35,622 nt of DNA from Bacteroidales bacterium (lineage in GTDB: Bacteria > Bacteroidota > Bacteroidia > Bacteroidales > UBA12077). A model generated the notes under the pieces. It was not told where the DNA came from. It was given only the letters and a program-made list of their open reading frames with translations, and made no database searches. The stretch covers positions 1 to 35,622 of the forward strand of contig DAOVYZ010000001.1 in assembly GCA_030635365.1 (NCBI GenBank), read 5' to 3'. Positions 1 through 35,622 of this stretch are shown one piece after another. Positions within the stretch are counted from its first letter, which is position 1. Every line of letters begins with the position of its first letter. The position numbers and the translations under genes were made by a program.

Positions 1-141
1 AACAAAAGAAGGCCGGGAGGAGTATGCCCGGTTAAATGAAGAATTAGGTGAAACAAATACCCAAATCAATGAACAACGCCTAGCATTTAATGATAGTACT
101 AAGAATATAGGCAAATACAAAGATTCCTTAAAAGGTGCTGA
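1..141. repeat. Terminal direct repeat, copy 1. It is identical to 35482-35622 and is most likely the assembly overlap of a circular or circularly permuted genome.
   Basis: I compared it base by base with the last 141 nt of the window and found 141/141 identity. The repeat lies inside a continuous ORF. Confidence 0.95.
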
Positions 142-2476
142 AAGTGGAACTAATTCATTAAGTAAATCATTTAAAGCATTATTAGCTAATCCTGTTGTTT
201 TAATTTTGGCCTTAATTACGGGAGCCTTGGCTGCTCTTTTTGGTGCTTTCAAGAAATCTGAAAACGGGGCTAAGTTATTAGAGAAAGCAACTGCAGGATT
301 GAATGGTTTAATGATGATCTTAACAAGGGTAATGAATACTTTAGCTAAAGCCCTTACAAAAGCTTTTGAAGACCCTAAACAAGCTGTAATTGATTTATGG
401 GAGGCAATTAAAAAGAATTTGGTTAATAGGGTTGAGGGACTTATAAGACTTTTCAAAGCCCTTATAGATATAGACTTTTCAAACTTAAAAAAATCAGCAA
501 AAGAAGTTGCCAGCGCATTTGTGCAGGTTTCAACTGGTCTTGATGAAGAACAACAAAAAAAGATAGCAAAAGGTTTTGCAGATATAGCAAAAGAGGCTGC
601 TATTTTGGCTCAAAAAATGGCTGATTTGGCAGCGTCTCAAAGGGCTTTAAGGGCACAAAGCAGGATATTAGAAAAAGATATTGCTGTTTTAAATGCAGAA
701 TTTGAAATGCTTGGTGAAATTGCCGGAGATGATACCCGGAATATGGAAGAAATGAGACAGGCCGCCATTGATGCCGGGGCGGCTGCCGCTGAATTAGCAC
801 AAAAACAAGAGAAATTAGCACAAATAAGATTAAACACAATTAATCAGGAGGTTGCCGTTCGCAGGAGTGCCGGTGAAGATATACAAGATCTTTTAGATAA
901 ACAGGCTGATGCTGAAGTTGCATTAACAGAGGCCAGATCACAGGCGGCAATTGCTCAGCAAAAAATACTTATTGAACAGAGAAAAATAGAACGTGATATT
1001 TTTGAGCAAAATCTTGACATCCTTTTAGATGTTGGGGACAAAATTAAAACAGAGCAGGAAAAAGCAATTGCAAACGAAAGCTTTTCACTTGAAAAAAGAA
1101 AGCGATTATTAGAAGCCTCAAAAGTTGCATTAACGGCCAACTTTGACGAAATAAAAAAGGAATATGAATTGTACGGGGTTACAGCCGAACAAATAAATGA
1201 TGTCATTAACGCCAGCGATGCAAAACAAGCCAATGAAAAATTAAAAGCATTAGGTTTAAATGAAATTGCAATAAATAGATTGCGCGAAATCATCCTGGAA
1301 AGAAAACAAGCTGAATTAGATTTCAATGATTTATCAAAAGATTTAAGTGATGAAGAAATTGAAAGAAAAAAAGCCGCAAACGAAACAATACAAGAAATCA
1401 ATGAAGAGGCTGCTTTATCTCAAATTGAAAACGCTGAAGAGCTAAGGGATAAACTAATTGAATTTGAGGAGGCTCGTCTTCAATTATTATTAGAAGATGA
1501 AACGCTAATTGCTGAAGAAAGGCAGGCTATTATTTTAGAATCAGAAGAAAAGATTCGTGAAATAGAACAAATATTTGCAGATGAAAAAGAAGAAGACGAA
1601 GAAGACAGATTAGAAAAAAGAAAACAATTACTTGAAGGTTTCTTCTCTGATCTTATCCAAATTACCGGACGTTTCGCAGGTGATGAGATTGCTATATTTA
1701 GTAGGATAGCTGCCGGTATTGCCAAGGCTTTTGAAGATGGTAAAATCACAGCAGAAAACGCATTGGCCGGTATTTCTTTAATCTCAAATGCTGTATTTGA
1801 TAATTTATCTCAAAGAAGGGCACAAGATTTAACAGAAAACGAAGCGGCCAGACAAAAAGAATTAGAACTTGCAGAGGGTAATGCTCAGGCTCAAGATGAA
1901 ATAAATGAATTTTTTGATAAAAAGAATGCTGCCTTAAAATTAAAACAATTCAATTCAGACAAAGCAAGGGCGTTAGTAGATATTGCAATTGCTACGGCAG
2001 TGGCAGTCGTTAAAGCTTTGCCAAATATACCATTATCTATAATAGTGGGAGGCTTTGGATTAGCTCAAGGGCTAATAGTTGCATCAAAAAAGCCACCTAA
2101 ATTTGAAAAAGGTACCAGTGATATAGTAGGTATTGGAGACTCTCACGCTTCAGGAAATGATACAGATGTTTGGGGTTTTTCTGGTAACAAAAAACAGTAT
2201 TTTGGTAAAGTAGAACGTGGTGAAGCAATGCCAGTTATTCGTAAAAGTGCTGTGAATGATTATATGATAGCAAAGTTAAACGGACGTTTTAGTGGTAGAG
2301 GTCGGACTTTTCAGGATGGAACGCCAGATATTACTAACCAGGAAACACAAAACAATGAAGTTTTTGTATCTAATTTAGTTGATGCTTTTTCTAATATTCA
2401 AATTGTCGCAAAGATTGAAGACATTACCAAAGAAGCCGGGAAAAAGATTGAGATTGTTGATAATTCTAAGGTTTAA
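2..2476 (+). CDS. Tail tape measure protein, C-terminal part. It continues from 35078-35481 across the circular junction, giving 959 aa in total.
   Basis: The frame of ORF 206-2476 stays open back to nt 2 and is in phase with the ATG at 35078 once the 141-nt overlap is collapsed. The protein has long A/E/K/Q-rich coiled-coil sequence, a Gly/Ala/Val-rich hydrophobic stretch (ALVDIAIATAVAVVKALPNIPLSIIVGGFGLAQGLIVA), and is the largest ORF. The TTG start at 206 in the track is an artefact of the window edge. Confidence 0.85.
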   Translation, partial: TKEGREEYARLNEELGETNTQINEQRLAFNDSTKNIGKYKDSLKGAESGTNSLSKSFKALLANPVVLILALITGALAALFGAFKKSENGAKLLEKATAGLNGLMMILTRVMNTLAKALTKAFEDPKQAVIDLWEAIKKNLVNRVEGLIRLFKALIDIDFSNLKKSAKEVASAFVQVSTGLDEEQQKKIAKGFADIAKEAAILAQKMADLAASQRALRAQSRILEKDIAVLNAEFEMLGEIAGDDTRNMEEMRQAAIDAGAAAAELAQKQEKLAQIRLNTINQEVAVRRSAGEDIQDLLDKQADAEVALTEARSQAAIAQQKILIEQRKIERDIFEQNLDILLDVGDKIKTEQEKAIANESFSLEKRKRLLEASKVALTANFDEIKKEYELYGVTAEQINDVINASDAKQANEKLKALGLNEIAINRLREIILERKQAELDFNDLSKDLSDEEIERKKAANETIQEINEEAALSQIENAEELRDKLIEFEEARLQLLLEDETLIAEERQAIILESEEKIREIEQIFADEKEEDEEDRLEKRKQLLEGFFSDLIQITGRFAGDEIAIFSRIAAGIAKAFEDGKITAENALAGISLISNAVFDNLSQRRAQDLTENEAARQKELELAEGNAQAQDEINEFFDKKNAALKLKQFNSDKARALVDIAIATAVAVVKALPNIPLSIIVGGFGLAQGLIVASKKPPKFEKGTSDIVGIGDSHASGNDTDVWGFSGNKKQYFGKVERGEAMPVIRKSAVNDYMIAKLNGRFSGRGRTFQDGTPDITNQETQNNEVFVSNLVDAFSNIQIVAKIEDITKEAGKKIEIVDNSKV

Positions 2477-2793
2477 TATAATTTATTATAAATTGTATTT
2501 ATCTTTTCATTAGAAAGAAATTGGTGTTTAAATGTGTGTTTTTTAAATAATTCACCAAGTATTTTTATACTATCTTTTTCACTTTTTAATGCCATTCTTA
2601 CAAAAGAATCAAATAAATTAAATGTTCTATCCAAAATGACTTTGACCTCCCTATTTGTCATTGTTTGCGTTATTTTGCTTTTATAATAATCTTCGCATTT
2701 TTTGCAAAGTATTTGATTCAGTTCTTGTATATTTTGAGGGGTAGATAATTCTGATTGTTCGCATATTTTTAATAATTCATCATCTAAAAACAT
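2473..2793 (-). CDS. Hypothetical protein, 106 aa. It is the last gene of the minus-strand cassette.
   Basis: Clean ORF with an ATG start, 13 nt downstream of the HTH gene on the same strand. Its stop codon overlaps the tape measure stop in a shared TTAA (2473-2476). The sequence looks all-helical. I recognise no family. Confidence 0.6.
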   Translation of the reverse strand: MFLDDELLKICEQSELSTPQNIQELNQILCKKCEDYYKSKITQTMTNREVKVILDRTFNLFDSFVRMALKSEKDSIKILGELFKKHTFKHQFLSNEKINTIYNKLY

Positions 2794-2806
2794 AATTATT
2801 TATTTA

Positions 2807-2995
2807 TTAAACCAAATATTTCTTTCTAAACTCTTCTAAATCATCCTGTTTAATTCTATATTCAGTACGCAAACCATGTTTGACCTGAATAGCTTTGAGC
2901 TTTTCTTTTTGTTTGCCTACTCCGTTGCGTATATAGTTACGTACAGCTCCCGGACATACATATAATTTATTGGCGGCTTCTTTAACTGTCAACAT
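2807..2995 (-). CDS. Small HTH DNA-binding protein of the excisionase/MerR-like HTH_17 type.
   Basis: MLTVKEAANKLYVCPGAVRNYIRNG ... YRIKQDDLEEFRKKY matches the excisionase-family pattern: LT..EAA..L.vs...v...i..G, then a beta hairpin, then dl..f. It is 62 aa. Confidence 0.65.
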   Translation of the reverse strand: MLTVKEAANKLYVCPGAVRNYIRNGVGKQKEKLKAIQVKHGLRTEYRIKQDDLEEFRKKYLV

Positions 2996-3001
2996 ATTAT
3001 C

Positions 3002-3265
3002 TTAATTTGTTGAATAATAAGACATTTTAATTAAATCATGAATTGTTATTTTCTTAACTCCTTTATGTTTATTATACCATTTAATATAATCATTATTCAC
3101 AACTGTCAATTTAGTATCCGACAATGGCACAACATGATATCTTTTTTTAGTCATTTTGTGCAATTTATTTGCTTTGCGCTTCATTTTCCAAAAGTTATAA
3201 TAATTCAAAAGAGAATTAATTTCAAAAATAATCGAAGCTTTAATTTTGTTAAATACGTTTTTCAT
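3002..3265 (-). CDS. Hypothetical basic protein, 87 aa. It is the first gene of the minus-strand cassette.
   Basis: ORF with an ATG at 3265. It is K/R/H-rich. A TAAGTTTG box lies 4 nt upstream on the minus strand. I recognise no family. Confidence 0.55.
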   Translation of the reverse strand: MKNVFNKIKASIIFEINSLLNYYNFWKMKRKANKLHKMTKKRYHVVPLSDTKLTVVNNDYIKWYNKHKGVKKITIHDLIKMSYYSTN

Positions 3266-20951: not shown

Positions 20952-22325
20952 ATGAACTTCAAGCCTCTTGATGTCTATGAACCTCTTTACTTCACACCTC
21001 CAAAAGTCCGTTATATTTCTGCTTGCGGTGGTCGTGGAGGCGGGCGCTCCCATAATTGTAGCGAATATTATTTTTTCAAAATCACAAGACCACAATATTT
21101 CAGGGGGCTAATTGCACGTGCCATATTTTCAGATTTAAAACTAACTACCTGGTTGGAATTTATTGATAGAATGCATGAGACAGAGGGGCTTGATCCTAAT
21201 CTATTCAAAATCAACAACACCGAAAAGATAATTGAATACATACCAACAGGCAATACAATCACAGGAATAGGCTTTAGAAAGTCAGCTGGGAGCCGTAAAG
21301 CTTCATTAAAGGGTTTTGCAAATGTTACCGATGTTTTGATTGAAGAGGCTCAAGAACTTACTGAAAAAGAATTAAATCAATTAGATGATAGTTTACGAAC
21401 AATTAAGGCACCGATTAGAATAATATTTGCTTTTAACATGCCTGAAAAAACCCATATACTAATGAGGCGTTTCTTTGATCTAAACCCTGTTAAATTAATT
21501 TGTGGCAATGGCATCGAACACGAGGGATTTATGAAGGCGATCCCAAAGAAAACCAGGCCTGATCACATTATGATCTTCTCAGACTACCGGGATAATTATA
21601 AACATTTGGACGCTCATACGATTGCTAATTATGAACGTTATTATTATGAAAACCCGGAGCATTATTTCACTGAAATTATGGGATATGTTTCCGGGGGAGC
21701 TAAAGGTGTTATTTTTAAATATAATCTTAATTGGTTTGAATATTCAGAGCTTCCGGACTTTGATTTCTATGAGACTTATGGACTTGATTTTGGTGGTGGT
21801 GGTGTGAATGATAAGCGAAAAGTTTATCCTGAAATTTATAAATTTGATGAACCGGACGGGAGCAGTACAACAGTGTTAGTAAAGTTGTTAATAAATAAAT
21901 CTTCAATGTCTGTTTATGTGAAACTATTGCTTTATAAGGCTTATATTAGTCCTGATGATTTAAGCCAAGTTTGTCAGGATTTTACGATTACAAAAGACGG
22001 CAAATATATCAAGAAAAAGAACATACTTGCTGACAATGCCCGTGCCGATAAAATAAGGGATTTAATCAATGATGGTTTAAATTGTATTGGTGCGAAGACA
22101 AAAGAAGGGGCTTCAAATAAGGTTATTACTGGTATTGATATTATTAAAAAATATAAGGTGTTCATTCATGTTGATGATATACCCGCTCAAGTTGAGGCAA
22201 ATAGCCACAGGTGGGAAACGTCAAAATCAACAGGAGAATTAACAGGAAATGTCGAGGATAAATTTAAGGATTTTTGGGATGCAGTACGCTATGCCTTAGT
22301 CAATTACGATTTATATAGCTGGTAA
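20952..22325 (+). CDS. terL: Terminase large subunit.
   Basis: It has a Walker A-like CGGRGGGRSH near the N-terminus and a Walker B-like VLIEEAQE. It is 457 aa and lies downstream of terS. Confidence 0.85.
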   Translation: MNFKPLDVYEPLYFTPPKVRYISACGGRGGGRSHNCSEYYFFKITRPQYFRGLIARAIFSDLKLTTWLEFIDRMHETEGLDPNLFKINNTEKIIEYIPTGNTITGIGFRKSAGSRKASLKGFANVTDVLIEEAQELTEKELNQLDDSLRTIKAPIRIIFAFNMPEKTHILMRRFFDLNPVKLICGNGIEHEGFMKAIPKKTRPDHIMIFSDYRDNYKHLDAHTIANYERYYYENPEHYFTEIMGYVSGGAKGVIFKYNLNWFEYSELPDFDFYETYGLDFGGGGVNDKRKVYPEIYKFDEPDGSSTTVLVKLLINKSSMSVYVKLLLYKAYISPDDLSQVCQDFTITKDGKYIKKKNILADNARADKIRDLINDGLNCIGAKTKEGASNKVITGIDIIKKYKVFIHVDDIPAQVEANSHRWETSKSTGELTGNVEDKFKDFWDAVRYALVNYDLYSW

Positions 22326-22805: not shown

Positions 22806-23028
22806 ATTTATTCTTTCGTTCACTGATTACGATAATATAAAAAAGGAAAATGAAAGCCTAAAATCGGTTATAGATACACTTATTGAAAAACCACATTCTA
22901 CTGAGTCTTTAATTATAATCGAAGGGCATAGATTAAAAAAACAATTAATTCGCAGCGTATGGATGGGAGATACTGGAAGAAAGTTAAAAAAATTTGATGG
23001 TATTTTATTAAAACATATAACGCCATGA
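22777..23028 (+). CDS. Hypothetical protein, 83 aa. An alternative start exists at 22786.
   Basis: It overlaps the previous ORF end. Its stop overlaps the next ATG as ATGA. Confidence 0.45.
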   Translation: MIKMKTKLIKFILSFTDYDNIKKENESLKSVIDTLIEKPHSTESLIIIEGHRLKKQLIRSVWMGDTGRKLKKFDGILLKHITP

Positions 23029-23612
23029 AAGTCAAAATAAACAATAAAAACCACAAGATAAAACCATCTTCAGAGCTGACAGTTAAAGAGTATACTCAAT
23101 ATTTTGACAGTTTAAAAGATGATTCCGGCAATTTAGAAAAGTTGATTTGCTATATTGTTGCAATAACAGGATTAAAATACAATCATGTTGCCGATATTGA
23201 TATAAACGAGACTACTATTAGGCGTTTATTCGCATACATTGGTGAGATTCCACAAGCAAAAGACATGCCAGAAAGCAAAGAATTTTATTATAAAAGAACA
23301 GGCAAAACATTGTATCAAAAGTCTGTTAATTGGCGAACTATCGGAGTCAGGAAATTACTTGAAGAAAGAAAAACGGATGATCCGCTTGATCAGGTTGTTT
23401 ATCTATTAGCTATTTATTTATCGAATGATTACGATCATCAAAAGATTGAAGAAATCTATAAAGAATTACAAGATTATAACGCTGTTGATGTACTTAGTTT
23501 TGTGATTTTTTTTTTCAAAAAATTGTATCCTGGCAGGAATTACGACAGAAGCTTTTTAAAAATGCAACCGAGAAAAGCAAATACAAACACAGTGAAACGA
23601 TTAAGCAAATAA
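23025..23612 (+). CDS. Hypothetical protein, 195 aa. It is the zero-frame product of a probable frameshift pair and may be a chaperone-like assembly factor.
   Basis: The ORF contains a T10 run at 23506-23515. See the -1 frame extension listed next. Confidence 0.55.
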   Translation: MKVKINNKNHKIKPSSELTVKEYTQYFDSLKDDSGNLEKLICYIVAITGLKYNHVADIDINETTIRRLFAYIGEIPQAKDMPESKEFYYKRTGKTLYQKSVNWRTIGVRKLLEERKTDDPLDQVVYLLAIYLSNDYDHQKIEEIYKELQDYNAVDVLSFVIFFFKKLYPGRNYDRSFLKMQPRKANTNTVKRLSK

Positions 23613-23794
23613 CTGGGCAAAGGCTAGATAAATATTCGGCTGTCAATGAAATAGAGTACATTTTAGAAAAAGGATTTGCCAATAATATTGATGATGCTTT
23701 GAAAATTGACGATGTTTACTTAACTTTGTCTCAATGTTCTAATATTGAACAACAGGATATTGATAGGAAAATTAGTGAAGCGATAAATAAATAA
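23498..23794 (+). CDS. ORF in the -1 frame with no start codon. It is probably reached by a programmed -1 frameshift from ORF 23025, giving a fusion of about 256 aa.
   Basis: I verified the codons by hand. The -1 frame opens at 23498, just after TAG at 23495-23497. It runs 98 sense codons to TAA at 23792-23794, 4 nt before the next ATG. It contains no ATG or GTG. The slippery T_TTT_TTT and T_TTT_TTC lie at 23507-23516. Confidence 0.5.
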   Translation, partial: FCDFFFQKIVSWQELRQKLFKNATEKSKYKHSETIKQITGQRLDKYSAVNEIEYILEKGFANNIDDALKIDDVYLTLSQCSNIEQQDIDRKISEAINK

Positions 23795-23798
23795 AACT

Positions 23799-23990
23799 AT
23801 GGAAATAATTGGGAAAAAAGCAGTAAGAACAGTAATATCGAAATCAGCAAAAAGAAGTAAAATAGAAACTATCCACGGGTTTTTTCCTTTTTTTACTGAA
23901 CAGGTTGTTTATAAAACACCCATTGGAAAGGTTAAGGGTAAAATAAAATATAAATCTATTACCAAACATGAGCCAATTTTAAATCTGTGA
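23799..23990 (+). CDS. Hypothetical basic protein, 63 aa.
   Basis: ORF only. Its stop overlaps the next GTG start as GTGA. Confidence 0.45.
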   Translation: MEIIGKKAVRTVISKSAKRSKIETIHGFFPFFTEQVVYKTPIGKVKGKIKYKSITKHEPILNL

Positions 23991-24466
23991 ACATAATAAC
24001 CACCATACAAGCAGCTCTGACAGCTCTCAATAATAATGCAGAGCTTTTTTTGCTTGAAAGAAGCCGAGCCGAAAATGAAGAGCTAAATCACGAAAGCGAT
24101 GTAATTGTTGTTTATCCTGATTGGCGAACCACTAACACTTTTAACCAAGGTTTAGAACTAATAAAAACCCGTGTTTACAATATTGACTTTAAGACTCCGG
24201 ACGAATGGGATAATTCAGACAACAACTTACCAACTGCATATGAAAGTAAAACAAGTGCAGACAGGATTGAAGATATGGAAATATTGGCAGATAGTATTTT
24301 TAGCTACATAACATTAAAAAATAACCTATTCCCAGAAATAAGAGAAAAATTAAAATGGACTTCACCAAGGCCAATTTTGAGGGCTAATAATGGTACGATG
24401 TCCGGGGTTAGTGTCCAGCTGACCGTTGTGTTTAGTGGTGAACGTATTTGTGATTACACACCTTAA
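23987..24466 (+). CDS. Candidate head-tail joining or tail completion protein, 159 aa.
   Basis: The size, the position before the tube-like gene, and an N-terminal I..I..AL.aL....lfl....... pattern resemble tail completion or terminator families. This evidence is weak. Confidence 0.3.
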   Translation: MNIITTIQAALTALNNNAELFLLERSRAENEELNHESDVIVVYPDWRTTNTFNQGLELIKTRVYNIDFKTPDEWDNSDNNLPTAYESKTSADRIEDMEILADSIFSYITLKNNLFPEIREKLKWTSPRPILRANNGTMSGVSVQLTVVFSGERICDYTP

Positions 24467-24469
24467 TTT

Positions 24470-26266
24470 ATGGCAAATTGCATAAATGAAATACAAGGCA
24501 TTCAAAGCATATCATTATATCCAAATAGTGGTATTCAATTAATACGGCCTGATATTTCAAATGAAAACGAGGTCAATTTAATAGCTGACGGTGCAGGCAG
24601 TTATACTATTTCTAATCCTGTTTTGCTGCCAAAATGGGAGCGAAATGTAGGTTATTCTGGAAATTATAAACAAAATTATAGTGACGAATTTAAGTTTATG
24701 GTTAATGGTATTGAGAATGAAATACCAGCAATAATAAAAGATTTAAGAAATAACCGGGTAGGCTATATTGCTGAAATACTCACAACAGGCAATCAAAACT
24801 ATGTTTTTCAATCTCCTGTATTCCTGAATAATGCCAATACAAAGCAAATAGACTCGCATAGCTGGCAAGTTTCATTATCTTACCGTATTCCCAGCTTTTT
24901 AAATAAGCTAATATTATTAGAAACTATTTTAACGAATAATCCAGATATATTACCGGTTGATGTTGAAATAGTAGGAATCCAAAGAATGGCATTGTATATT
25001 AATGAAGATGTAATATACAGGTATCTTGATCCGTCCAATGAAAATGAAATTGCTTTAGTTTCACCCGTTGAGCCTTTTATTATAATAAATGATATTAATC
25101 AATTACCTAAATGGGAACGTATAACAGATAATTCCGGCAATTATAAGCAGAATTACAATGATGAGTTTACCTTTTTATTACATGGAATTGAAAATGATGT
25201 GCCGGGAATAACCCAAAGTTTAAGAAATAACAGACTTGGTTTTATAGTTGAAATATTGACAACAGGAAACAAACCATTTATTTTCCGAACACCTGTTTTT
25301 TTAAATGAAGATAACACAAAACAAATTGATTCACATAGTTGGGAGGTTTCTCTATCATATAGAATACGAAGTTTTTTGGATAAATTAACATTAACAGAGA
25401 GGCCTATTGTAGAATATAGAAACGGAATTGTTACAAATTCTTTTTTTGGGAATGTTGCGGTTTTTGATTTTGAAGCAAAAATAAATTCTAATACACAAGT
25501 TACATTTACTGTTAATTGGGGTGCTGAGATTGGTACAACTGTAATAAATTCAATTATGGTTGATGGTGTATGGAAAGCCTTACAAACTTCAATATTAATT
25601 CCTTTAGGTGTGAATCCTAATCAAACAATTATTGTTACTGATAATTTTGGTGATAGTTTTGAGGTGGAATATGTTATTGAAGCGGGTATTCCTGTGCCTG
25701 AATTAAATTACTGGCCTTTTTTAGGCAATACTGATGATATTGTAGGAGGTAACGATGGTGTTAATTTTGGAGCTGCGCTGGTAGCGGATAAAGGAGGAAA
25801 TCCTAATAGTGCCTATTTTTTTGATAATGCAGAATCGGATTATATGGGTCTAACAAGTTCTATTAACGCAGCAAAGGTTCATTCATTTACTGCTAGATTA
25901 AAATGTGTAGTTTATGGGAATATAATATTTAATGATGGGGTTAATACTTTTATTTATGTGCGCAATGCCACGGAAATTCAATATCGCGCAACGGGCAGTG
26001 ATATTTTAAGCTTCAGCGCCATCCTTCCATCTGCTAATACATATTTCGACTTAGTAATAACAAGAAATGGAACATCTGTATCCTGTTATATTGATGGAAT
26101 ACAGCAAGATACTGCAAAAACATTAGTGGCAAATAATGATTACATCTTTGATCTGCTGACGAGAACAGGAACGTCTTTCAGAATGAATGGTACAATTGAT
26201 AATATGAGAATTTATAACAGAGTAATAACACAAGACGAAATAGATCTAATACATGCAGAAACATGA
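24470..26266 (+). CDS. Tail structural protein, 598 aa. It has two tandem copies of a roughly 159-aa tube-like domain, a beta-sandwich region, and a C-terminal LamG/concanavalin-like lectin domain.
   Basis: The internal repeat spans aa 8-147 and aa 167-306 with a constant 159-aa offset. By my count 66 of 95 aligned residues are identical from LPKWER to SFL.KL. The C-terminus WPFLGNTDDIVGGNDG...FRMNGTIDNMRIYNRVITQDEIDLIH is the LamG (Laminin_G_3) signature. Confidence 0.7.
   Translation: MANCINEIQGIQSISLYPNSGIQLIRPDISNENEVNLIADGAGSYTISNPVLLPKWERNVGYSGNYKQNYSDEFKFMVNGIENEIPAIIKDLRNNRVGYIAEILTTGNQNYVFQSPVFLNNANTKQIDSHSWQVSLSYRIPSFLNKLILLETILTNNPDILPVDVEIVGIQRMALYINEDVIYRYLDPSNENEIALVSPVEPFIIINDINQLPKWERITDNSGNYKQNYNDEFTFLLHGIENDVPGITQSLRNNRLGFIVEILTTGNKPFIFRTPVFLNEDNTKQIDSHSWEVSLSYRIRSFLDKLTLTERPIVEYRNGIVTNSFFGNVAVFDFEAKINSNTQVTFTVNWGAEIGTTVINSIMVDGVWKALQTSILIPLGVNPNQTIIVTDNFGDSFEVEYVIEAGIPVPELNYWPFLGNTDDIVGGNDGVNFGAALVADKGGNPNSAYFFDNAESDYMGLTSSINAAKVHSFTARLKCVVYGNIIFNDGVNTFIYVRNATEIQYRATGSDILSFSAILPSANTYFDLVITRNGTSVSCYIDGIQQDTAKTLVANNDYIFDLLTRTGTSFRMNGTIDNMRIYNRVITQDEIDLIHAET
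24491..25387 (+). repeat. Intragenic tandem duplication with a 477-nt period. Copy 1 is 24491-24910 and copy 2 is 24968-25387.
   Basis: The two protein segments align with no net indel. The DNA copies are clearly similar, for example AATTATAAACAAAATTATAGTGACGAATTTA versus AATTATAAGCAGAATTACAATGATGAGTTTA. Confidence 0.85.
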
Positions 26267-31042: not shown

Positions 31043-31470
31043 TAAAAAAAATAATTTTAATATTGTTTTTATCCATTGTATTAAAGTCTTTTTCAATAGC
31101 TCAAATAAAAATAAAAAGTGATATTGAAATGGGTTATTTAAATGATAAATATAGTTTAAATAATGATGGCTATTTTATACAATATGAATCAGGTAATGTT
31201 TTGTACTGTGATATAATTGCAGATTTTTCAATAAAGAGATTTCATGTTGAACAGCAGATTTTTAACATGTTTGCTTATGATGATTCATATTCATTTAAGC
31301 CAATGGAAATTTTATATAAAACAAGACTTTATTATAAATATAAGTCTTTTTCTGGTGGAATTGAGCATATGTGTTTGCACCCGATCATTAACCAGCATAA
31401 TGCATTAGATCAGATTACAAGGAGAGCCAGTCACGATAAAATATTCATAAGATTCACATTTGAAAACTAA
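31039..31470 (+). CDS. Secreted beta-rich protein with a signal peptide, 143 aa. It is a candidate small outer-membrane beta-barrel carried as a moron.
   Basis: The N-terminus is MIKKIILILFLSIVLKSFSIAQ followed by IK. The sequence has alternating aromatic/polar stretches and ends IFIRFTFEN. It sits among fibre genes. Confidence 0.45.
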   Translation: MIKKIILILFLSIVLKSFSIAQIKIKSDIEMGYLNDKYSLNNDGYFIQYESGNVLYCDIIADFSIKRFHVEQQIFNMFAYDDSYSFKPMEILYKTRLYYKYKSFSGGIEHMCLHPIINQHNALDQITRRASHDKIFIRFTFEN

Positions 31471-31802
31471 TGAATAAATTTAACGCTAAAAAAATAATTA
31501 TAAGCGGGATTATATTCGATAGCAAGAAAGAAGGGCTTTATTATTTAAAATTATTAATGCTCAAAAAGGCTAATAAAGAAAGTGAAAGGGTCATTAATAT
31601 AGCATTACAACCAAGATTTGATATAATTATCAATGGTAAAAAGATAGGCTTTTATAAAGCTGATTTTAAAGTTACTTATGCAGATAAGCACACAGAAATA
31701 ATTGATATTAAAGGCTTAAAAAAGGGTTCTGCTTATCAACTATTCAGATTGAAAAAGAAGCTTGTAGAAGCACTTTATAACATTGAAATAATTGAAAAAT
31801 AA
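31470..31802 (+). CDS. DUF1064-like small PD-(D/E)xK nuclease-fold protein.
   Basis: F.SKKEGLYY..L then YKADFKVTY...TEIIDIKG fits the DUF1064 pattern: FdSk.E..... then aDF..... then E.KG. Confidence 0.5.
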   Translation: MNKFNAKKIIISGIIFDSKKEGLYYLKLLMLKKANKESERVINIALQPRFDIIINGKKIGFYKADFKVTYADKHTEIIDIKGLKKGSAYQLFRLKKKLVEALYNIEIIEK

Positions 31803-34091: not shown

Positions 34092-34265
34092 ATGCCAGAT
34101 CCGCCAATCAAGCCACCAAACAAAGGGGCAGAAAAATTATTAAATGAAATAGAAATTGCAACAAAAAACAGAACATTTGATGAAAAATTAGGAATAACTA
34201 TTGCTATTCTTGTTAATAAAATTGCAATATTAGAAGATAAAATAAATGCGCTTTCTGAAAAATAA
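34092..34265 (+). CDS. Small hypothetical protein, 57 aa. It is absent from the ORF track.
   Basis: Translation is MPDPPIKPPNKGAEKLLNEIEIATKNRTFDEKLGITIAILVNKIAILEDKINALSEK. It is on the plus strand like its neighbours. I prefer it to the minus-strand ORF 34085-34372. Confidence 0.45.
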   Translation: MPDPPIKPPNKGAEKLLNEIEIATKNRTFDEKLGITIAILVNKIAILEDKINALSEK

Positions 34266-34644
34266 AGGAATTGCGTTTTTAATTCTTGTTTTTGCTGTAG
34301 TGGCTGAGTATTTTCATTTGCTTTTTGTAGGTGAAATACACAGTCATTACATACGAAATGGAATAGAAACACGCATTTACTGGGATGATATGGTGTACTA
34401 TTTTTTTAATGAATTATTTACTTTAATATTAATTGTAATAATATTTATAAAGATAGGAAAAAACAAAGCATCAAAAGCAATTTTAGCAGGAGTTTGCTTT
34501 TGGTTTTTTGTTGAATGGGTTGAAATTACACTGCAATTAGCAAAAATAAGTGACGCCCGGCTTTATATTAATGATGGATCATGGTTGCAATTGTTCACCT
34601 GCTTGACAATAGTATTATTAGTTTTCTTTGGGAGCAAAAAATAA
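34246..34644 (+). CDS. Integral membrane protein with four predicted TM helices, 132 aa. It may be holin-like or have another membrane function.
   Basis: It has four hydrophobic stretches of about 20 aa: IAFLILVFAVVAEYFHLLFV, FTLILIVIIFIKI, AILAGVCFWFFVEWVEI and LQLFTCLTIVLLVFF. Confidence 0.55.
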   Translation: MRFLKNKGIAFLILVFAVVAEYFHLLFVGEIHSHYIRNGIETRIYWDDMVYYFFNELFTLILIVIIFIKIGKNKASKAILAGVCFWFFVEWVEITLQLAKISDARLYINDGSWLQLFTCLTIVLLVFFGSKK

Positions 34645-35075
34645 ATATATTAAGCGGAATTTTTTTAGGCTTAACAATTTATTCTTGTTTTTATAAAAAA
34701 AAGTTAGAATTTAAAAAAATAGAATTTTTAAAACGAAATTCTTATTTAATAAAATGGCAAATATTAATACTGAAACAAATGAGTGATAAAGAAAATTACC
34801 AGGTAAAAGAAATATTAACAGCTCATATAAAAAAAAATGATGTTTTCAAAAATGAAGTCAGGTCTGAATTAAAAAAAATTAATGAAAAAATAACCAATGA
34901 AATAAAAACGGTTATTCGGGTATTGACTGATTACATGTTAACAAATGATAAAAGGGTTAGCGAATTAGAGGGCGAACAAAAAGTCACAAAAAGAGAGATT
35001 GCAATTTATATTGGTATTGTGGGCACTTTTATAATGCTTGTAATAAATACATATATGACATTTAAAGGCGGTTAA
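34581..35075 (+). CDS. Membrane protein in the -1 frame relative to ORF 34246. The start is uncertain: ATG 34581, ATG 34779, or entry by frameshift.
   Basis: It overlaps the upstream ORF by 64 nt. It has a TM segment near its N-terminus (ILSGIFLGLTIYSCFY), a coiled-coil middle and a C-terminal TM anchor (IAIYIGIVGTFIMLVINTYMTF). It ends 2 nt before the tape measure ATG. Confidence 0.5.
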   Translation: MVAIVHLLDNSIISFLWEQKINILSGIFLGLTIYSCFYKKKLEFKKIEFLKRNSYLIKWQILILKQMSDKENYQVKEILTAHIKKNDVFKNEVRSELKKINEKITNEIKTVIRVLTDYMLTNDKRVSELEGEQKVTKREIAIYIGIVGTFIMLVINTYMTFKGG

Positions 35076-35077
35076 AA

Positions 35078-35622
35078 ATGGCAGATGAACAAATTATAGT
35101 AGATATTCAAGTTGATTCTAAAGAGGTAAAAACAGCCGAAAATAGAGTTGATGAGTTGACCGATTCCATCGAGGAGTTAGGTAATAGGATTGCTACAGCC
35201 AGAAAACAGAATAAACAATTTAAAAAAGATCAACAGGATTTAAATAAATTATATAAGGATGGTGCCATATCTTCAGATAAATACGAAAAAGAAGTTGATA
35301 AACTTAATACTAAAATCAAAACAAACAATAAAGTAATTGCTGAAAGTTCTGTTGAATTAAGTAAGCAAAAAAGAGAAAGAACTTCAAACATTAAGTTAAT
35401 AAATTCAGAAACAAACTCCCTTGCACAATTAGAGGCAAAAGCATCATTATTAAATAAAGCAATTACCAATCAAACAACGGCAACAAAAGAAGGCCGGGAG
35501 GAGTATGCCCGGTTAAATGAAGAATTAGGTGAAACAAATACCCAAATCAATGAACAACGCCTAGCATTTAATGATAGTACTAAGAATATAGGCAAATACA
35601 AAGATTCCTTAAAAGGTGCTGA
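35078..35622 (+). CDS. Tail tape measure protein, N-terminal part. It is open to the window end and continues at nt 2 through the terminal overlap.
   Basis: From ATG 35078 the translation begins MADEQIIVDIQVDSKEVKTAENRVDELTDSIEELGNRIATARKQNK. I checked every codon and found no stop before the window end. The ORF track does not list it. Confidence 0.85.
   Translation, partial: MADEQIIVDIQVDSKEVKTAENRVDELTDSIEELGNRIATARKQNKQFKKDQQDLNKLYKDGAISSDKYEKEVDKLNTKIKTNNKVIAESSVELSKQKRERTSNIKLINSETNSLAQLEAKASLLNKAITNQTTATKEGREEYARLNEELGETNTQINEQRLAFNDSTKNIGKYKDSLKGA
35482..35622. repeat. Terminal direct repeat, copy 2. It is identical to 1-141.
   Basis: 141/141 identity by direct comparison. Confidence 0.95.

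Follow-up and report, generated by a model that had tools for sequence, protein, structure and literature searches.

An open reading frame (ORF) on the forward strand of contig DAOVYZ010000001.1 (Bacteroidales bacterium, assembly GCA_030635365.1; the whole stretch of 35,622 nt that we analyzed is called the window below) starts with the ATG at 23025 and ends with the TAA at 23610-23612, coding for a protein of 195 amino acids. A second reading frame, open in the -1 register, overlaps its 3' end and continues beyond it. The question raised by this locus is whether the gene really ends at its first stop codon, or whether a run of ten T's (T10) inside it serves as a site where expression moves into the -1 frame and a longer protein is made. 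A first-pass annotation, made from the letters of the window, had proposed the latter, in the form of a programmed -1 frameshift. We found that the two-frame architecture is conserved at both the nucleotide and the protein level, and that the T10 run is a recoding site with good support, absent from earlier annotation, by which a large family of phage proteins can be defined.

Two reading frames meet at a T10 run

All the coordinates and codons of the first-pass annotation were borne out when the sequence was read directly. The -1 frame opens after a TAG (23495-23497); its 98 sense codons run from 23498 to the TAA at 23792-23794, and the ATG of the downstream gene is found at 23799. The T10 run occupies positions 23506-23515 and is followed by a C (23516) and by six A's (23517-23522). 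The zero-frame codons over the run read GTG ATT TTT TTT TTC AAA AAA and contain two X_XXY_YYZ heptamers, T_TTT_TTT (23507-23513) and T_TTT_TTC (23510-23516), both of which are in phase, as had been pointed out together with the A6 run.

A -1 shift within the T10 run joins 164 zero-frame codons to 92 codons of the -1 frame, which gives a protein of 256 amino acids. This long isoform corresponds to 23025-23516 joined to 23516-23791; its -1 continuation (23516-23794, forward strand) comprises 92 codons plus the TAA and encodes a conserved C-terminal domain. The short isoform (23025-23612, forward strand) comprises a conserved N-terminal domain (amino acids 1-164) and a basic tail of 31 amino acids that is poorly conserved. 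The portion of the -1 frame that is open 5' of the shift site (23498-23515, forward strand) is not expected to be translated in that frame, and its 5' limit lies from 17 to ~77 nt before the run across relatives.

The -1 frame has no ATG or GTG, and its only TTG codons, at 23699 and 23726, lie late in it, which agrees with the first description of a start-less frame. No start is conserved, the only early ATT codon varies among relatives, and no promoter or terminator signal was found in the region; these observations argue against a downstream ORF that would be translated independently. At the base composition of the window, the chance of 98 open codons is P ~1.5e-4, and none of 20,000 shuffles of the 297-nt -1 window was free of stops, so that the earlier judgment that such an open run is unlikely to arise by chance holds. 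The T10 run is the longest homopolymer of the window and its sole T run of at least nine. Deletion of one U or insertion of two U's in the run leads to a stop 14 codons past it. The only other homopolymer of at least nine in the window is an A9 at 34829-34837, within the ORF at 34581-35075.

Both frames are conserved among close relatives

The 256-amino-acid fused sequence was used as a query against ~5.8e9 proteins, which returned 46 close homologs. All 46 are between 163 and 213 amino acids long, mostly exactly 195, and none is of about 256; one of them (P0001) is identical to the product of ORF 23025-23612. At the DNA level, 16 loci of this close clade were collected from IMG/VR, JGI, GTDB genomes, NCBI, ENA, and Logan assemblies. 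In all 16, the run is exactly T10, a C comes next, and the phase is unchanged (NTT TTT TTT TTC, where N is never T), with a -1 frame that stays open for 92-94 codons past the run. The shift site (23506-23516, forward strand) is invariant at 11 of 11 positions in 15/15 close loci. The -1 frame is open in all relatives, with 55-80% amino-acid identity, and the peptide conserved in the close clade is FFFQK..W..R..LF..A.EKS.HK[HY]SE.IKQITG.RLDKYS..EIE..LEKGFANNI.DALKIDDVYLTLSQCSEIEKQDIDRKI.EAI.K. This conservation of two frames supports the two products, of 195 and about 256 residues, that had been predicted.

Column entropy by codon position was used as a test of which frame is selected. For codon positions 1, 2, and 3, respectively, the values were 0.72, 0.42, and 1.28 bits 5' of the run (zero frame); 0.82, 0.54, and 1.16 bits in the 97-nt overlap (-1 frame); and 0.54, 0.36, and 1.03 bits beyond the zero-frame stop (-1 frame). 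The run is precisely where wobble-position variation ceases to follow the zero frame and begins to follow the -1 frame. To judge from this pattern, the -1 frame is under strong purifying selection, which argues against a recently decayed gene.

In the overlap, pairwise identity is 40% for the zero-frame tail versus 55% for the -1 peptide. One close relative (L013:4001-4519) has a zero frame that ends 8 codons past its T10, for a product of 172 amino acids, and an intact -1 frame; this early stop indicates that the basic zero-frame tail is dispensable. Where the zero frame stops is largely a by-product of the Q-I-T-G motif conserved in the -1 frame (CAA ATA ACN GG).

The same design in distant relatives

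A profile search with HMMER, run exhaustively over 1.84e9 cluster representatives, led to 127 clusters at 50% identity. All 127 distant representatives are 126-237 amino acids long. Among the 121 that are full-length, 119 have FF[FL] at the position equivalent to the shift site, and then 2-70 (median 35) mostly basic residues. The two others, P0134 (AYYISKNFF) and P0141 (VFFYRNL), may use a different site or none. The family was found in freshwater, groundwater, sediment, and other metagenomes.

Three distant-relative alignments were too divergent for locus scanning. DNA from four distant groups revealed an equivalent design, in which a T9 stands at the site of the T10: loci L009, L018, and L019 read NNT TTT TTT TTG, and twenty IMG/VR loci of another clade read GGT TTT TTT TTC. 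The -1 ORFs of these groups have 93-105 codons, and their products are homologous to the C-terminal domain of the window, with a common region ...LC.LLN.N..E.....D.... Over all loci examined, a T9 or T10 run with a -1 ORF of 92-105 codons was found in 39 of 40. Retention of both frames and of the slippery run in relatives had been suggested as a check on the first interpretation, and no locus was found with stops in the -1 frame or without the run.

The exception is L039:3001-3708 (IMGVR_UViG_3300028920_000178), which has a T10 in a T9 clade. Because it has one T more than its clade, it presents a single ORF of 235 amino acids in which the N- and C-terminal domains are fused in frame, with the junction GFFF-LQ as predicted. 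This natural variant confirms the expected form of the fused product. The locus itself may represent a lineage that is genuinely in frame, a variant within a population, or slipped molecules that were assembled. When a profile of the C-terminal domain was searched against 5.8e9 proteins, the 11 matches were all fragments of 63-100 amino acids from spurious internal starts, and no long in-frame fusion of the two domains was among them. Conservation of this depth implies that the out-of-frame state is itself under selection.

Nucleotide constraint on the run

The run has at least nine T's in 40/40 loci. Its first T is the second base of a codon in the T10 clade of the window and the third base in three other clades, which have T9. 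Phenylalanine within the run is always encoded by TTT and never by TTC, although TTC makes up 23% of the phenylalanine codons elsewhere in these genes. The codon that precedes the run (for isoleucine, valine, leucine, glycine, or alanine) always has a T at the wobble position; elsewhere in these genes, only 37% of the four-fold degenerate codons end in T, and the other wobble positions are near saturation. A canonical in-phase heptamer was found in 40/40 loci, namely T_TTT_TTC/T_TTT_TTT in the clade of the window and T_TTT_TTG or T_TTT_TTT in the T9 clades. Two sequence features of transcriptional slippage are therefore present at the frame change: a run of at least nine A/T (a threshold of ~9 nt taken from PMC5009743), and a run length that is kept beyond coding need and independently of phase.

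How the shift may be made

Downstream of the run, no RNA structure was detected that is either conserved or stable. The RNAalifold consensus reaches -1.21 kcal/mol and shows a single helix, a weak AU stem located 35 nt past the run, and the fold of the window sequence is weaker than that of its shuffles (z = +1.15). An Rfam scan of the site gave no match, no Shine-Dalgarno (SD)-like stimulator was found upstream near the slip site, and no terminator-like hairpin precedes the T run. The site thus lacks the marks of stimulated programmed ribosomal frameshifting of the dnaX, IS911, or IS3 type.

The RNA:DNA hybrid of bacterial RNA polymerase (RNAP) is 9-10 bp long, and the enzyme slips efficiently on A or T runs of 9 nt (Atkins et al. 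2016, PMC5009743). At the A11 run of Citrobacter rodentium tssM1, ~20% of the product is shifted, by a transcriptional route, and both length variants as well as their ratio are required (PMC4256274). Unstimulated heptamers in E. coli lead to only ~0.1-0.3% ribosomal frameshifting (PMC4066793). A run of at least nine T's in either codon phase, together with the lack of RNA structure, favors RNAP slippage over a purely ribosomal shift. We lean slightly towards a long form that would come mostly from the insertion of one U by RNAP, with ribosomal slippage contributing.

The T10 at 23506-23515 would then act as the programmed recoding site of a large family of tailed-phage proteins. Standard decoding would produce the 195-residue protein, made of the N-terminal domain and the basic tail, which is dispensable. 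Some expression events would instead include a -1 move within the run, and this would join the N-terminal domain (amino acids 1-164) to a helical C-terminal domain of 92 residues to yield the 256-residue protein. RNAP would realign the nascent U run on the A10 template and add one U, and the resulting U11 transcripts would be translated normally into the long form; a smaller share would come from ribosomal -1 slippage on U_UUU_UUC or U_UUU_UUU. Both isoforms would be made at a set ratio, probably for tail morphogenesis in the manner of gpG and gpGT of phage lambda. Of the frameshift put forward in the first-pass annotation, recoding and the conserved slippery run hold; the agent may have to be revised, as the shift is possibly made mainly by RNAP slippage and not by a ribosome on a heptamer.

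Several points weigh against this preferred reading. The mechanism and the isoform ratio are deduced from the sequence, and the slippage behavior cited is that of bacterial RNAP in general, from which the polymerase of this host may differ. The zero-frame tail is little selected itself, and the short form could be a by-product. The T run may be conserved in part because the protein needs FFF at the junction; this leaves unexplained the exclusive use of TTT and the T at the wobble position of the preceding codon. In addition, the canonical heptamers are in phase in all 40 loci, in both phase arrangements, and P2-type phages reportedly use T_TTT_TTG ribosomally.

The last two points speak for a purely ribosomal -1 frameshift, as in lambda G/GT or P2 E/E', in which homogeneous U10 mRNA would give, unstimulated, a few percent or less of the long form. 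This explanation is a serious one that we consider possible and yet rather doubtful. The heptamers U_UU.U_UU.C and U_UU.U_UU.U exceed 0.1% unstimulated in E. coli and are used by insertion sequence (IS) elements (PMC4066793), the G/GT sites of phages are typically without stimulators and of low efficiency (PMC5009743), and both the two-isoform logic and the tail-gene neighborhood described below fit G/GT. However, a heptamer needs only 6-7 T's, yet no locus has fewer than nine and the extra synonymous positions are invariant, and the site has neither an SD-like element nor a downstream structure. T runs of at least nine are moreover expected to slip RNAP anyway (PMC5009743); heterogeneous transcripts would therefore coexist with ribosomal slippage and would probably dominate quantitatively.

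An improbable alternative is variation of the homopolymer length in the DNA, through replication slippage and akin to phase variation, so that the long form would come from a sub-population of genomes with T11 (or T10 in the T9 clades). Homopolymers of 9-10 nt are prone to mutation, and the L039 locus, with its fused ORF and one T more than the T9 of its clade, is what such variation would produce. Even U7/A7 runs are indel-prone (PMC4066793). Against this, the consensus assembly is out of frame at 39 of the 40 loci, no genotype present in a minority of genomes could provide each infected cell with both proteins at a reproducible ratio, and the deeply conserved out-of-frame state implies selection for it.

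Lastly, an artefact or decay (a homopolymer error for a true T11, which the first-pass annotation had kept as its alternative, a recent pseudogene, or independent initiation in the downstream ORF) is very improbable and, on the comparative sequence evidence, is excluded for practical purposes, because, although homopolymers are error-prone on some platforms and a single window alone leaves an error possible, the same out-of-frame length recurs in dozens of independent assemblies (NCBI, ENA, JGI, Logan, and IMG/VR) down to ~20-27% protein identity.

The protein and its gene neighborhood

The N-terminal domain (amino acids 1-165) was modeled by AlphaFold2 (AF2) with a pLDDT >90. The C-terminal extension is predicted to be helical; its low confidence stems from the fact that it was modeled from a single sequence, the -1 sequences of its relatives not being in the input of the predictor. 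Searches with blastn and tblastn in the GenBank phage collection gave no match. Pfam, PHROG, and PDB sequence searches with the fused protein and 14 fused relatives gave nothing meaningful, including no match to a tail assembly chaperone (TAC), and a PDB profile search with the fused protein gave 0 matches. A weak PHROG match to a tape-measure protein (E 0.001) was set aside as probably a coiled-coil artefact. Foldseek with the AF2 model found no fold match in the PDB (best E 0.69); in BFVD, it found uncharacterized proteins of uncultured phages, plus one 74-amino-acid TAC at E 2.3.

The two ends of the window are an exact direct repeat of 141 nt (1-141 and 35482-35622), so that the genome is circular or has terminal redundancy and measures 35,481 bp. 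In the window, the large terminase subunit gene TerL (20952-22325, forward strand; Pfam Terminase_3, E 1e-16) is followed by two small ORFs, the shifted gene (23025-23794), a 63-amino-acid ORF, a 159-amino-acid ORF, and a gene with a tail-tube fold (24470-26266), with a tape-measure-like gene starting at 35078. TerL is also the upstream neighbor of the shifted gene in L011-L016, L019, L020, L027, and L039. In all clades, the shifted gene follows the large terminase (the portal in L009) and precedes an ORF of 147-184 amino acids and then tail genes; only in L018 does a tape-measure-like gene adjoin the shifted gene, on its upstream side.

The 159-amino-acid protein (23987-24466, forward strand) is conserved, with 72-86% identity among close relatives, and distant clades have in its place the ORFs of 147-184 amino acids, which align weakly (18-20%). 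It matched no family and no PDB sequence, and a PDB profile search was uninformative. It is likely a functional partner of the shifted gene.

The tail-tube-fold protein (24470-26266, forward strand) has 598 amino acids and consists of tandem tube domains (amino acids 1-150 and 160-310), a domain of ~155 amino acids having been duplicated with ~60% identity, and of additional domains, among them a C-terminal ConA/LamG-like one (Laminin_G_3, Pfam). With its AF2 model (pLDDT 80), the best Foldseek matches were chain 7qg9_G from the tail tip core of T5 (E 2.6e-5), the tail tubes of T1 and Mu, and lambda gpV. Its tandem domain resembles pb6 and p140 of T5, which are known duplicated tube-domain proteins (PMC10038345). 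In relatives, this protein is found as a double-domain form of ~338 amino acids, a longer form of 744, and a single-domain form of ~178. The possibility that this neighbor (338 or 598 amino acids) was the major capsid protein, and the shifted gene its scaffold, was rejected, as the neighbor has the duplicated tail-tube fold.

The tape-measure-like gene runs from 35078 to 35622 and on across the 141-nt overlap to window positions 1-2476 (forward strand), for 959 amino acids in all; it was split by linearization. Directly 5' of it, where a G/GT pair usually stands, two ORFs (34246-34644 and 34581-35075) overlap by 64 nt, the second being in the -1 frame. They were rejected as a real G/GT pair since both encode multi-pass membrane proteins, and they are perhaps holin-like.

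The most economical functional hypothesis is that the shifted gene encodes a displaced, non-homologous tail assembly chaperone with the logic of G/GT, for which the gene neighborhood makes a nearly balanced case. Of the likeness to G/GT proposed at the outset, the two-isoform logic is supported, and a detectable match to a known TAC family is what is missing. The placement was rightly called unusual, as 11.5 kb separate the gene from the tape-measure-like gene that starts downstream of it at 35078; it is not just after the terminase, as had been said, but two small ORFs after TerL. Three things count against a chaperone: the tail-assembly role is deduced from the neighbors, the gene does not lie between the tube and tape-measure genes as G/GT does, and neither sequence nor fold places the protein among known TACs (Pfam Phage_TAC_ families, PHROG TAC, or solved TAC structures). 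Other assembly roles, such as a tail-fiber or baseplate chaperone or a connector factor, are also conceivable.

Elsewhere in the window, an ORF similar to DUF1064 and to Holliday-junction resolvases (31470-31802; Pfam E 1.5e-19, PHROG E 3e-26) stands amid structural-looking late genes. Three small ORFs (106, 62, and 87 amino acids) on the minus strand at 2473-3265, directly after the tape-measure-like gene, make up the only clear strand switch of the genome; they may form a module for regulation or for a lysogeny switch.

Implications for annotation and phage assembly

In every database entry seen, the protein is called as a short hypothetical protein of ~195 amino acids, since gene callers truncate it, and the conserved C-terminal domain is effectively missing from protein databases. 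Recognizing the site restores the 256-amino-acid protein and accounts for a recurring 'noncoding' gap of ~180 nt in densely packed genomes. The principle that one assembly gene yields two isoforms, known from long-tailed phages, is also extended to a protein family and a genome position that are both new. If the protein is a tail chaperone, the G/GT function can come from a non-homologous and displaced gene. T9 and T10 runs in two codon phases, together with an in-frame variant, offer a clean natural system to separate transcriptional from ribosomal slippage.

A bolder interpretation, which we offer tentatively and hold to be unlikely as a whole, is that these proteins, which form at least 127 clusters at 50% identity, are a new chaperone family for the morphogenesis of tailed phages and that their two isoforms arise by obligatory, family-wide transcriptional slippage on T9/T10. 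This would be the first deeply conserved RNAP realignment in phage virion assembly, and it would replace, in function, the canonical G/GT that is absent upstream of this tape-measure gene.

Comparison with known recoding systems

The closest parallel in logic is the tail assembly chaperone gpG/gpGT of phage lambda, made by a conserved -1 programmed ribosomal frameshift (Levin 1993; Xu 2004; reviewed in PMC5009743). As in that system, the two products share an N-terminal domain, the longer one arises when the frame shifts by -1 into an overlapping ORF without a start (kept here in 39/40 loci, with an in-phase heptamer in the overlap), the arrangement is kept despite very low sequence identity and has no RNA stimulator, and the phage is long-tailed, with tube and tape-measure genes. 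Unlike in lambda, the shift site is a T9/T10 homopolymer and not a bare heptamer, and it lies 31 codons before the zero-frame stop instead of a few codons. The gene also stands after TerL and ahead of the tube-fold gene, 11.5 kb before the tape-measure gene, and shows no similarity to TACs.

The E/E+E' site of the tail chaperone gene of P2 is likewise a T-rich heptamer, and the clades with T9 followed by G hold exactly T_TTT_TTG in phase. However, P2 has six T's only, whereas the run here is never shorter than nine, and the protein family and the genome position differ. P2-like phages have a higher frameshift efficiency (PMC5009743). Frameshifted C-terminal extensions are also known from gene 10A/10B of T7 and T3, the major head protein of Lactobacillus phage A2, and the capsid and tail proteins of Listeria phages A118 and PSA (PMC5009743). 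In these cases as well, some of the molecules gain a C-terminal domain through the shift. What is added there is usually an Ig-like decoration domain, carried by a capsid or tube protein, in contrast to the small helical domain that would extend an alpha/beta domain of unknown kind in the present protein.

Transcriptional slippage at A/T homopolymers has been described for dnaX of Thermus thermophilus (9 T), tssM of Citrobacter rodentium and Yersinia (A11), spa13 and mxiE of Shigella, and IS elements (PMC5009743; PMC4256274). The gene of the window resembles these in having at least nine A/T in its coding sequence, no RNA stimulator, and, as predicted here, two length variants per gene. The known examples are cellular or IS genes, mostly of narrow lineages, whereas the present run is kept throughout a highly divergent phage family of 127 clusters at 50% identity. 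Among them, tssM1 comes nearest in setting, as it serves a phage-tail-like machine that needs both variants in their proper ratio.

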